The position numbers were made by a program. A DNA stretch of 64,000 bases from Escherichia coli (GTDB lineage: Bacteria; Pseudomonadota; Gammaproteobacteria; Enterobacterales; Enterobacteriaceae), in assembly GCF_003334355.1 (NCBI RefSeq), contig NZ_QOWP01000001.1. One strand, given 5' to 3'. The stretch's first letter is position 1. Every line of letters starts with the position of its first letter. Shown piece after piece: positions 23,001 to 26,000 of this stretch.

Positions 23001-26000
23001 TGTAAGTACGCAGCATCTTGCTGGCTTCCTGGGAGCTCATTGCAACCTCCTGCATGGAGCGTAGTACACCGTGTTCGCCCGCTGACGAAGGCAAACCCAT
23101 AGACATGTCGTCAGACATAGCGAACCTCAAATTATTTTATTAAGTGTAAAACAGTTAACGACTATCGCAGCCTGGAACTGCGATAACAACCCATAAGCAC
23201 ATGGATTTTCCAGCAGTGTATGCTGACGCTCCGACTGCGCAACCGGTTTCTTTTTCATAACATTATTAAGCACATAACCGAACGTAAGTGTGACAGTTCG
23301 GCGAAACCACGAGAAAACTCTTGTTTTTACAAGAGCGCCCTTGTTCAGTCCTCAGTAACTGTAACCAGCTCTTGAATCCTGAGAAGCGCCGAGATGGGTA
23401 TAACATCGGCAGGTATGCAAAGCAGAGATGCAGAGTGCGGGGAACGAATCTTCACCAGAACGGTGAGACAGGTTAAGCAGCAGACAACGGTTCATTATTT
23501 CGTATCACCTCCACGGCCGCCTGTTAAGACGAACCCACAAGCCAAAACTCTGATTTCAACCCGGCTGGAAGTGGCAACACGAAAAAAACGTCGTGTGCTT
23601 TTTATTTAAGCCGCGCGCCGCGTTTTATACCCCACAATGGCAGAAAATTGCAAAAGATAAATACGCAGAATGCCGGCATTGTCAGGAAAAATTTCCAGCC
23701 ACGTTTTTAACAGAATGAGACACGATTCAAAAAAAAGTGGAAATCGGGTGAAGAATTGACCTAAAATAGCCATCCAGATGTTAATCCATCCATACCGATT
23801 AACACTCAGACTGCCAGTGTTTTTAACCTGCAGAGTCGTGGTAGGATCCGCTACCACAGAAAATCCACACAACAGTTTGAGCTAACCAAATTCTCTTTAG
23901 GTGATATTAAATATGGCAAAACACCTTTTTACGTCCGAGTCCGTCTCTGAAGGGCATCCTGACAAAATTGCTGACCAAATCTCTGATGCCGTTTTAGACG
24001 CGATCCTCGAACAGGATCCGAAAGCACGCGTTGCTTGCGAAACCTACGTAAAAACCGGCATGGTTTTAGTTGGCGGCGAAATCACCACTAGCGCCTGGGT
24101 AGACATCGAAGAGATCACCCGTAACACCGTTCGCGAAATTGGCTATGTACATTCCGACATGGGCTTTGACGCTAACTCCTGTGCGGTTCTGAGTGCTATC
24201 GGCAAACAGTCTCCTGACATCAACCAGGGCGTTGACCGTGCCGATCCGCTGGAACAGGGCGCGGGTGACCAGGGTCTGATGTTTGGCTACGCAACTAATG
24301 AAACCGACGTGCTGATGCCAGCACCTATCACCTATGCACACCGTCTGGTACAGCGTCAGGCTGAAGTGCGTAAAAACGGTACTCTGCCGTGGCTGCGCCC
24401 GGACGCGAAAAGCCAGGTGACTTTCCAGTATGACGACGGCAAAATCGTTGGTATTGATGCTGTCGTGCTTTCCACTCAGCACTCTGAAGAGATCGACCAG
24501 AAATCGCTGCAAGAAGCGGTAATGGAAGAGATCATCAAGCCGATTCTGCCCGCTGAATGGCTGACTTCTGCCACCAAATTCTTCATCAACCCGACCGGTC
24601 GTTTTGTTATCGGTGGCCCGATGGGTGACTGCGGTCTGACTGGTCGTAAAATTATCGTTGATACCTACGGCGGCATGGCACGTCACGGTGGCGGAGCATT
24701 CTCTGGTAAAGATCCATCAAAAGTGGACCGTTCCGCAGCCTACGCAGCACGTTATGTCGCGAAAAACATCGTTGCTGCTGGCCTGGCCGATCGTTGTGAA
24801 ATTCAGGTTTCCTACGCAATCGGCGTGGCTGAACCGACCTCCATCATGGTAGAAACTTTCGGTACTGAGAAAGTGCCTTCTGAACAACTGACTCTGCTGG
24901 TACGTGAGTTCTTCGACCTGCGCCCATACGGTCTGATTCAGATGCTGGATCTGCTGCACCCGATCTACAAAGAAACCGCAGCATACGGTCACTTTGGTCG
25001 TGAACATTTCCCGTGGGAAAAAACCGACAAAGCGCAGCTGCTGCGCGATGCTGCCGGTCTGAAGTAATCTTTCTTCACCTGCTTTCAAAGGCCAGCCTCG
25101 CGCTGGCCTTTTTCTTTTACCTCACCGCGGTGGATAGGCATTCACGCCGCATCCGGCAAAAAGCTGCCCGCACAATAACATCATTCTTCCTCAACACGTT
25201 TTATCGCAAATTATCATCACTACTGAAACCGATTACACCAATAACACCAGCCAAATATTTGTAATATTTTCATATTATTATTCAGTTTTCACAGTTGTTA
25301 CATTTCTTTTCAGTAAAGTCTTAATTGCAGATAACAGCGTTTAATCTATGATGATATAACTCAATTATTTTCATGCACTTAAACCATAACTAAGATAAAT
25401 GTTAGTGTAAGCGATTACACTGATGTGATTTGCTTCACATCTTTTTACGTCGTACTCACCTATCTTAATTCACAATAAAAAATAACCATATTGGAGGGCA
25501 TCATGCCTGACGCTAAAAAACAGGGGCGGTCAAACAAGGCAATGACGTTTTTCGTCTGCTTCCTTGCCGCTCTGGCGGGATTACTCTTTGGCCTGGATAT
25601 CGGTGTAATTGCTGGCGCACTGCCGTTTATTGCAGATGAATTCCAGATTACTTCGCACACGCAAGAATGGGTCGTAAGCTCCATGATGTTCGGTGCGGCA
25701 GTCGGTGCGGTGGGCAGCGGCTGGCTCTCCTTTAAACTCGGGCGCAAAAAGAGCCTGATGATCGGCGCAATTTTGTTTGTTGCCGGTTCGCTGTTCTCTG
25801 CGGCTGCGCCAAACGTTGAAGTACTGATTCTTTCCCGCGTTCTACTGGGGCTGGCGGTGGGTGTGGCCTCTTATACCGCACCGCTGTACCTCTCTGAAAT
25901 TGCGCCGGAAAAAATTCGTGGCAGTATGATCTCGATGTATCAGTTGATGATCACTATCGGGATCCTCGGTGCTTATCTTTCTGATACAGCCTTCAGCTAC

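Follow-up and report, generated by a model that had tools for sequence, protein, structure and literature searches.

The DNA analysed here is a stretch of 64,000 nucleotides of the Escherichia coli chromosome (RefSeq assembly GCF_003334355.1, contig NZ_QOWP01000001.1), referred to below as the window, in which the genes speA and speB lie on the minus strand behind a long 5' leader that holds the small open reading frames (ORFs) yqgG and yqgB, with metK and galP on the plus strand (Table 1). Our subject is yqgB, an ORF that encodes a peptide of 43 amino acids and whose TGA stop is separated from the ATG of speA by exactly 8 nt (GGTTCGCT, 23126-23119). An earlier note on this DNA had given the same coordinates, the same length of 43 codons and the same gap, and reading the sequence bears all three out. 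The peptide string that it printed had 44 letters, owing to a transcription slip that put one surplus T into "AAIVV" to give "AATIVV".

The earlier note also implied that the ORF had been missed, but it is an already annotated gene: RefSeq gives identical coordinates as yqgB, "acid stress response protein YqgB", with yqgG and yqgD lying upstream, and the protein has Pfam and NCBIfam families of its own. It scores 91.4 bits against NCBIfam NF033844 ("acid stress response protein YqgB"), above the cut-off of 35 and so within the family, and all of its residues (1-43 of 43) fall within a match to Pfam PF11036 ("Virulence promoting factor"; E = 6e-32). Hemm et al. in 2008 and Hobbs et al. in 2010 are said to have detected tagged YqgB and to have found the deletion mutant acid-sensitive. 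A 701-nt query across yqgB matched 5426 of 5426 complete E. coli genomes, and searching about 5.8 billion proteins with a profile returned 143 clusters, which carried Enterobacteriaceae names except for one record labelled Vagococcus sp.; a member of the family was found directly upstream of speA in all of 78 Enterobacteriaceae speA loci, with RefSeq agreeing. Taken on a single sequence, yqgB does not go beyond chance, as there are 92 ORFs of at least 20 amino acids within the surrounding 6 kb, and it is therefore the comparison between genomes, together with the literature, that supports its reality. The idea that yqgB is an upstream ORF (uORF) of speA is likewise already in print. What is new here is comparative evidence which suggests that selection acts upon translation up to the start of speA and upon RNA structure, and not upon the peptide.

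Table 1. Positions in the window of the speA leader, its predicted elements and the neighbouring genes
Feature	Position	Strand	Remarks
speB	20084-21004	minus	
speA	21142-23118	minus	
metK and galP	within the E. coli chromosomal window	plus	
yqgB, 43 sense codons	23127..23258 (ATG 23258-23256, TGA 23129-23127)	minus	sequence reading and RefSeq coding sequence
speA primary start codon (primary translation initiation site, pTIS)	23116..23118	minus	gives SpeA-74
speA Shine-Dalgarno sequence, GAGG	23125..23128	minus	overlapped by the yqgB stop TGA (23129-23127); read from the sequence
Alternative yqgB stop TGA (ATGTCTGA)	23111..23113	minus	speA +6..+8 (codons 2-3); 20 of 78 loci
speA internal start (internal translation initiation site, iTIS), AGGAGG-N5-ATG	23038..23051	minus	at Met-27; gives SpeA-70
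Hairpin H1, terminator-like (GCUCUUG...CAAGAG, then UUUUCUCGUGG)	23317..23336	minus	between yqgG and yqgB
Hairpin H2 (CCGAAC...GUUCGG)	23278..23301	minus	just 5' of the yqgB start
Hairpin H3, 7 bp (UUAUCGC / GCGAUAG)	23162..23186	minus	inside yqgB; covers the YGLLS and AIVV blocks
Outer stem, 5' arm UACACU	23143..23148	minus	yqgB codons 37-39; pairs with GGUGUA
Outer stem, 3' arm GGUGUA	23065..23070	minus	speA +49..+54
Predicted hairpin around the speA AUG (GUUCGCU/GGCGAAC, UG/CR, CUGACGA/UCGUCAG)	23073..23125	minus	
speA 5' leader, 498 nt	23119..23616	minus	as cloned by Adams et al.; holds yqgG, H1, H2 and yqgB
Published Rho-dependent or processed RNA 3' end	23061	minus	K-12 position 3085854; 57 nt into speA; mapped by sequence
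yqgG, 47-codon upstream ORF	23352..23495	minus	in the speA leader; RefSeq coding sequence
yqgC	23394-23609	plus	older annotation; overlaps the speA leader/promoter region
yqgD	23606-23857	minus	older annotation; overlaps the speA leader/promoter region

Eighty speA loci from different Enterobacteriaceae genomes were fetched by one scan of a genome collection, which returned close relatives only, and the 78 with enough upstream sequence were used. The ATG of yqgB and an uninterrupted frame of 42-91 codons were present in every one of the 78. Among the 47 unique sequences of 43 codons no in-frame stop was found, compared to 7.1 +/- 1.9 expected, and stops were never absent when alignment columns were shuffled (0 of 2000 shuffles), while each of the other two frames carried stops in 47 of the 47 sequences. 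Nor do insertions of 12-48 codons close the yqgB frame. In two Enterobacter loci (L055:1300-1500 and L078:1300-1500) an ERIC-like repeat, with 19/22 matches to the ERIC1R and ERIC2 primers, has been inserted between TTTTA and CACTT of a conserved block, extending the ORF to about 90 codons which are open throughout and which end at the second stop described below. Shorter inserts at this same site in L036 (Kosakonia) and L046 (Atlantibacter) may be remnants. Three variants of YqgB known from single genomes of Shigella and E. coli (P0083, P0097 and P0099) have 8-10 scrambled internal residues, after which the frame is restored; such compensated double frameshifts would fit selection for an open frame and could equally be assembly errors, and they were given no weight.

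In 58 of the 78 loci the frame ends at the TGA that stands 8 nt ahead of the speA ATG, and in the remaining 20 a frame shift in the variable tail carries it on to the TGA within codons 2-3 of speA, the peptide then ending ...EVRYV*. Buttiauxella and Mangrovibacter, the most divergent genera in the protein search, likewise use this second stop. Parsimony on the speA tree required no fewer than 10 independent switches from one TGA to the other and gave none into the frame of speA, an outcome with a probability of about 0.001 if both other frames were equally likely at each switch, and avoidance of the speA frame matters only if yqgB is translated. The ribosome-binding block of speA, TGAGGTTCGCT, was invariant in an alignment of 30 genera and is also kept in the 20 loci where yqgB does not stop within it. 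Judged on these comparisons, the informative signals are the openness of the ORF and its avoidance of the speA frame, both of which lend indirect support to its being translated.

Two other fates for ribosomes at the yqgB stop were looked at. A programmed +1 frameshift at the UGA, which would yield a YqgB-SpeA fusion, was rejected, as conservation does not extend to the final sense codon and in none of the species does yqgB share the frame of speA. If the UGA were read through, the yqgB frame would be open for 31 more codons (23038-23129, minus strand), ending at a UGA that overlaps the internal start of speA (CAAUGA), an extension that probably just follows from the invariance of the sequence.

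Pairwise comparison gave yqgB a ratio of non-synonymous to synonymous differences (pN/pS) of 0.84, compared to 0.90 and 0.76 for the two wrong frames, and entropies of 0.52, 0.63 and 0.60 at the three codon positions, with no codon periodicity; codons 41-200 of speA gave a pN/pS of 0.02 and entropies of 0.08, 0.01 and 0.80. The middle of the YqgB peptide is hypervariable, and its AIVVNCFTL block stands anywhere between 4 and about 50 codons before the stop. Within the conserved blocks MxKKPVA, YGLLS and AIVVNCFTL the wobble positions vary no more than positions 1 and 2 do, with GGG TTG TTA TCG, for example, being identical in 30 genera while the synonymous divergence of speA is 0.49, and this calls for a constraint at the level of RNA. 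The blocks coincide with predicted helices. Comparison of the sequences thus suggests that the amino-acid identity of YqgB is not under selection, and that yqgB evolves like a spacer which is non-coding in character but translated.

Consensus folding of the 30-genus alignment was carried out with RNAalifold, and covariation was checked for each helix. Hairpin H2 is supported by covariation, with both sides changing in 4 of its 6 pairs, and H3 (helix 6) is 100% paired and invariant; a long imperfect helix was also predicted within yqgB. The outer stem (helix 7), which would join the end of yqgB to the beginning of speA, is paired in 30 of 30 sequences and is invariant, and its UACACU block still adjoins the start of speA in loci with an ERIC-like element inserted upstream of the block. 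Inside this stem the start of speA is predicted to lie in a hairpin of 7+2+7 bp, with the AUG in an internal bulge. Taken alone, the E. coli hairpin has a minimum free energy of -21.5 kcal/mol (z = -3.06), only 4 of 500 shuffled sequences folding as well, and 98.8% of its cells in the alignment are paired. In the context of the leader, the predicted probability of being unpaired is 0.06-0.16 for the speA Shine-Dalgarno (SD) sequence, compared to 0.72 for the region of the yqgB start; no SD-like 4-mer was found upstream of the yqgB start in any of the 78 loci. An Rfam scan of the leader region (22500-24200) at a permissive E-value matched no known RNA family.

The sequence TGTTTTACA (23144-23152, minus strand) occurs in most genera as a direct repeat, with one copy towards either end of yqgB. 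In most of the other genera the second copy immediately precedes the ATG of yqgB (alignment A1, columns ~121-129), and the upstream copy of E. coli has diverged; the repeat could be a binding motif for a protein or an RNA. A candidate internal promoter in yqgB (TTAACT-16-AATAAT) was rejected, since its -10 hexamer sits in the hypervariable tail.

The early part of speA itself is unusual. A strong internal start at Met-27 has been reported by Meydan et al. 2019, by INRI-seq and by N-terminomics, so that both SpeA-74 and SpeA-70 are made, and peptides of the two proteoforms have been reported; the region of the Met-27 start was invariant in our alignment. Codons 1-26, which belong to SpeA-74 (23041-23118, minus strand), show a synonymous divergence (pS) of 0.138 compared to 0.492 downstream, a 3.6-fold slower synonymous evolution, and a pN/pS of 0.48 compared to 0.02. 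Enhanced conservation of synonymous sites in speA was likewise noted by Meydan et al. 2019. The substitutions in this 26-codon extension follow a pattern closer to that of an RNA element than to that of coding sequence. Alignment to the Vibrio vulnificus SpeA structure 3n2o begins only at residue 33 of the E. coli protein and residue 12 of the Vibrio protein, which lacks most of the extension, and the strong Met-27 start may be the ancestral start of speA.

Published work also places Rho at this leader. Adams et al. 2021 (PMC7815308) reported an abundant 3' end for speA with a Rho score of 3.09, scored "Yes" and tagged "uORF", and listed yqgB-speA among uncharacterised small ORFs with 3' ends nearby downstream. 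Their leader was cloned with primers which begin GCGCGGCTTAAATAAAAAGC and finish just before the speA ATG, and of the seven fusions that carried only a 5' untranslated region, the effect of Rho was eliminated only for those of cyaA and eptB (PMC7815308), from which it would appear that the speA leader is itself a site of Rho action. The predicted outer stem ends 4 nt short of the 3' end at 23061, and this is where one would expect exonuclease trimming of a Rho-terminated transcript to halt. In Salmonella, a 2026 study found that levels of speA and speB mRNA, of arginine decarboxylase and of spermidine fall when yqgB is deleted, and that the phenotype is rescued by polyamines; neither complementation nor a polarity control is mentioned in that paper.

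We consider it probable that yqgB is a cis-acting translated uORF, which brings ribosomes to speA and opposes Rho termination by being translated and not by way of its peptide. Ribosomes would load at the unstructured AUG of yqgB, which lacks an SD sequence and which INRI-seq detected as a start codon in vitro, and in translating would melt the conserved helices of the leader, to terminate at the UGA that precedes the speA AUG by 8 nt or, in certain species, at the one 8 nt inside speA. The terminating ribosome would there cover or unwind the 5' arm of the hairpin that is predicted to bury the primary start of speA, the same or a new ribosome could then initiate SpeA-74, and nascent RNA covered by ribosomes would oppose Rho termination in the leader and in early speA. 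Beyond the arrival of a ribosome at the yqgB stop we infer the steps, namely occlusion by the hairpin, reinitiation, and a link between yqgB translation and Rho. The lowered speA expression of the Salmonella deletion mutant is in the direction expected from this scheme.

The earlier note had proposed control of speA by a leader peptide or uORF, and only the second of these finds support. The openness of the frame, its non-coding-like evolution, the hairpin at the speA start and the published data on Rho and on deletion speak for a cis-acting uORF. A classical attenuation leader peptide of the trp or his type was rejected, as only one of the 43 codons of yqgB specifies Arg and there is no run of regulatory codons, the peptide is hypervariable in its middle, and the 8 nt between yqgB and speA hold no terminator, the sole terminator-like hairpin on this strand (H1) being upstream of yqgB.

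Several points weigh against a cis-acting uORF of this kind. Chief among them are the initiation peaks reported at the primary start of speA with retapamulin, by Ribo-RET in vivo and by INRI-seq in vitro: as these appear when elongation upstream is blocked, they indicate de novo initiation at that start, so that coupling to yqgB is not obligatory and can only modulate the expression of speA, not gate it. Such initiation also speaks against tight occlusion by the hairpin. A peak at the yqgB start was absent in vivo by Ribo-RET, and its translation may be weak. Since the arms of the speA-start hairpin and of the outer stem do not vary, covariation provides no evidence for or against either of them, and the whole 106-nt junction of yqgB and speA is not unusually stable (z = -1.37). 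Nor is the 8-nt spacing independent evidence, because the two stops lie in the invariant SD block and in codons 2-3 of speA. The design of the Salmonella deletion is not described, and it may have taken out RNA elements besides the ORF. Finally, the conserved blocks also preserve the residues MxKKPVA, YGLLS and AIVVNCFTL, with which a residue-dependent function of the peptide may be compatible.

If YqgB were instead a functional small protein acting in trans, in acid stress or at the envelope, its position next to speA would reflect co-expression only. The family is annotated and modelled (NF033844, PF11036), the tagged protein and the acid-sensitive deletion mutant attributed to Hemm et al. 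and Hobbs et al. would suit such a role, Cai et al. 2026 reported phenotypes and small-molecule binding for YqgB, and three peptide blocks are conserved across genera. We nonetheless regard this as unlikely, given that the pN/pS of yqgB is the same as that of the out-of-frame controls with no codon periodicity, that the invariant wobble positions of these very blocks need an RNA-level explanation anyway, and that the C-terminal region tolerates both insertions of 12-48 codons and changes of frame. The deletion phenotypes, moreover, run via speA and speB and are rescued by polyamines, with no trans-complementation or polarity control mentioned, and overexpressed YqgB induced aggregation-type heat-shock proteins in a published screen for arrest peptides.

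That same screen bears upon a ligand-sensing arrest peptide of the SpeFL, TnaC or MdtU type, in which polyamine, arginine or agmatine would stall the ribosome on AIVVNCFTL and so mask a Rho site or expose the speA start, since YqgB fell with the heat-shock inducers and did not give the cold-shock-like response of arrest peptides. Stalling of this sort would suit the conserved C-proximal block, the Rho-dependent termination downstream and the precedent of the polyamine genes speF and mdtJI, which are controlled in this way, but it would be expected to constrain the amino acids, where pN/pS is about 0.84, and to fix the distance from block to stop, where this runs from 4 to about 50 codons, and we hold it to be improbable. 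The remaining alternative dispenses with translation, the ORF being incidental and the leader purely a structured RNA that serves as a Rho-loading platform, as a binding site for a protein or small RNA, or as a source of a 5'-derived small RNA. Conservation at the nucleotide level, helices supported by covariation, the accumulation of an abundant short 5' transcript and the missing Ribo-RET peak at the yqgB start in vivo would all be in keeping with this. It would leave unexplained why stops are avoided in the yqgB frame only, why indels and insertions have left the ORF open in all of the 78 loci, why at least 10 switches have produced no in-frame fusion to speA and why initiation at yqgB is detected in vitro, and we think it very improbable.

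The part of the leader upstream of yqgB holds yqgG, which is kept in 70 of the 78 loci and shows a weak coding signal (pN/pS 0.63, compared to 0.89 and 0.99 in the frame controls). Its stop lies about 16 nt before the terminator-like hairpin H1 and the UUUUCUCGUGG that follows it; H1 covaries at one pair (UA in 16 sequences, CG in 10 and UG in 4). By its layout, yqgG with H1 could be an attenuator, but no Term-seq 3' end was reported at H1 by Adams et al. 2021 (PMC7815308). In Weaver et al. 2019, yqgG is named as a newly identified small ORF that was chromosomally tagged, and yqgC is given as having neither ribosome density nor a tagged protein; yqgC is not listed in the RefSeq record examined. 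A promoter picked out by eye (TTGCAA-17-TATAAA, 23652-23624) fits the 5' end, at 23616, of the leader of Adams et al.

A wider proposal, which we put forward tentatively and think rather doubtful as a whole, is that yqgG and yqgB, the hairpins, the masked primary start, the 26-codon extension and the Met-27 start form one lineage-specific module reaching from the speA promoter to Met-27, in which ribosome traffic through yqgG and yqgB, tuned by metabolites or stress (arginine, polyamines, acid), would govern the read-through of Rho termination into speAB as well as the proportion of SpeA-74 to cytoplasmic SpeA-70. Were this so, the label "acid stress response protein" and the drug-target claim would rest upon an effect in cis. 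The narrower cis-acting uORF, if it holds, would already mean that the phenotypes of yqgB deletion are those of losing SpeA and polyamines and not of losing a protein, a practical warning given that in thousands of genomes yqgB carries the label "acid stress response protein" or "virulence promoting factor" and that it was proposed as a drug target in 2026. The adjustment of E. coli arginine decarboxylase to polyamine supply is poorly resolved in the older literature, and the speA leader would be a concrete and testable place for such control.

Among known systems, the mdtU-mdtJI leader (Adams et al. 2021, PMC7815308) resembles yqgB-speA in belonging to a polyamine-related operon and in having a small leader ORF with Rho-dependent 3' ends downstream. 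The stop of mdtU, however, is 106 nt upstream of mdtJ and the C-terminal peptide of MdtU is reported to be conserved, suggesting stalling that depends upon the peptide, whereas yqgB abuts speA and its peptide appears free of amino-acid selection. YqgB matches its own family (PF11036/NF033844) over its full length, but the family names imply a protein function, while the selection seen here appears to be on openness and on RNA. The leader ORF speFL (orf34) is similar in that it precedes speF, a decarboxylase gene of polyamine biosynthesis, and takes part in Rho-dependent control. Its conserved peptide senses ornithine in the exit tunnel. Unlike speFL (orf34; Ben-Zvi et al. 2019), yqgB shows no constraint at the level of the peptide, and its conserved block stands at a variable distance from the stop.

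Pairs of genes coupled by termination and reinitiation, such as trpE-trpD, the coat and replicase genes of RNA phages and the ribosomal protein operons, offer a further comparison. The yqgB-speA pair differs from these in that yqgB encodes a non-conserved peptide within a long 5' leader and is not a functional cistron, and in that speA has a second, strong and independent start at Met-27, its dependence on yqgB being putative. It is like them in that the yqgB stop overlaps the SD sequence of speA, lying 8 nt before the speA AUG or 8 nt after its A, and in that the start of speA is predicted to sit within a stable hairpin that a terminating ribosome could open.

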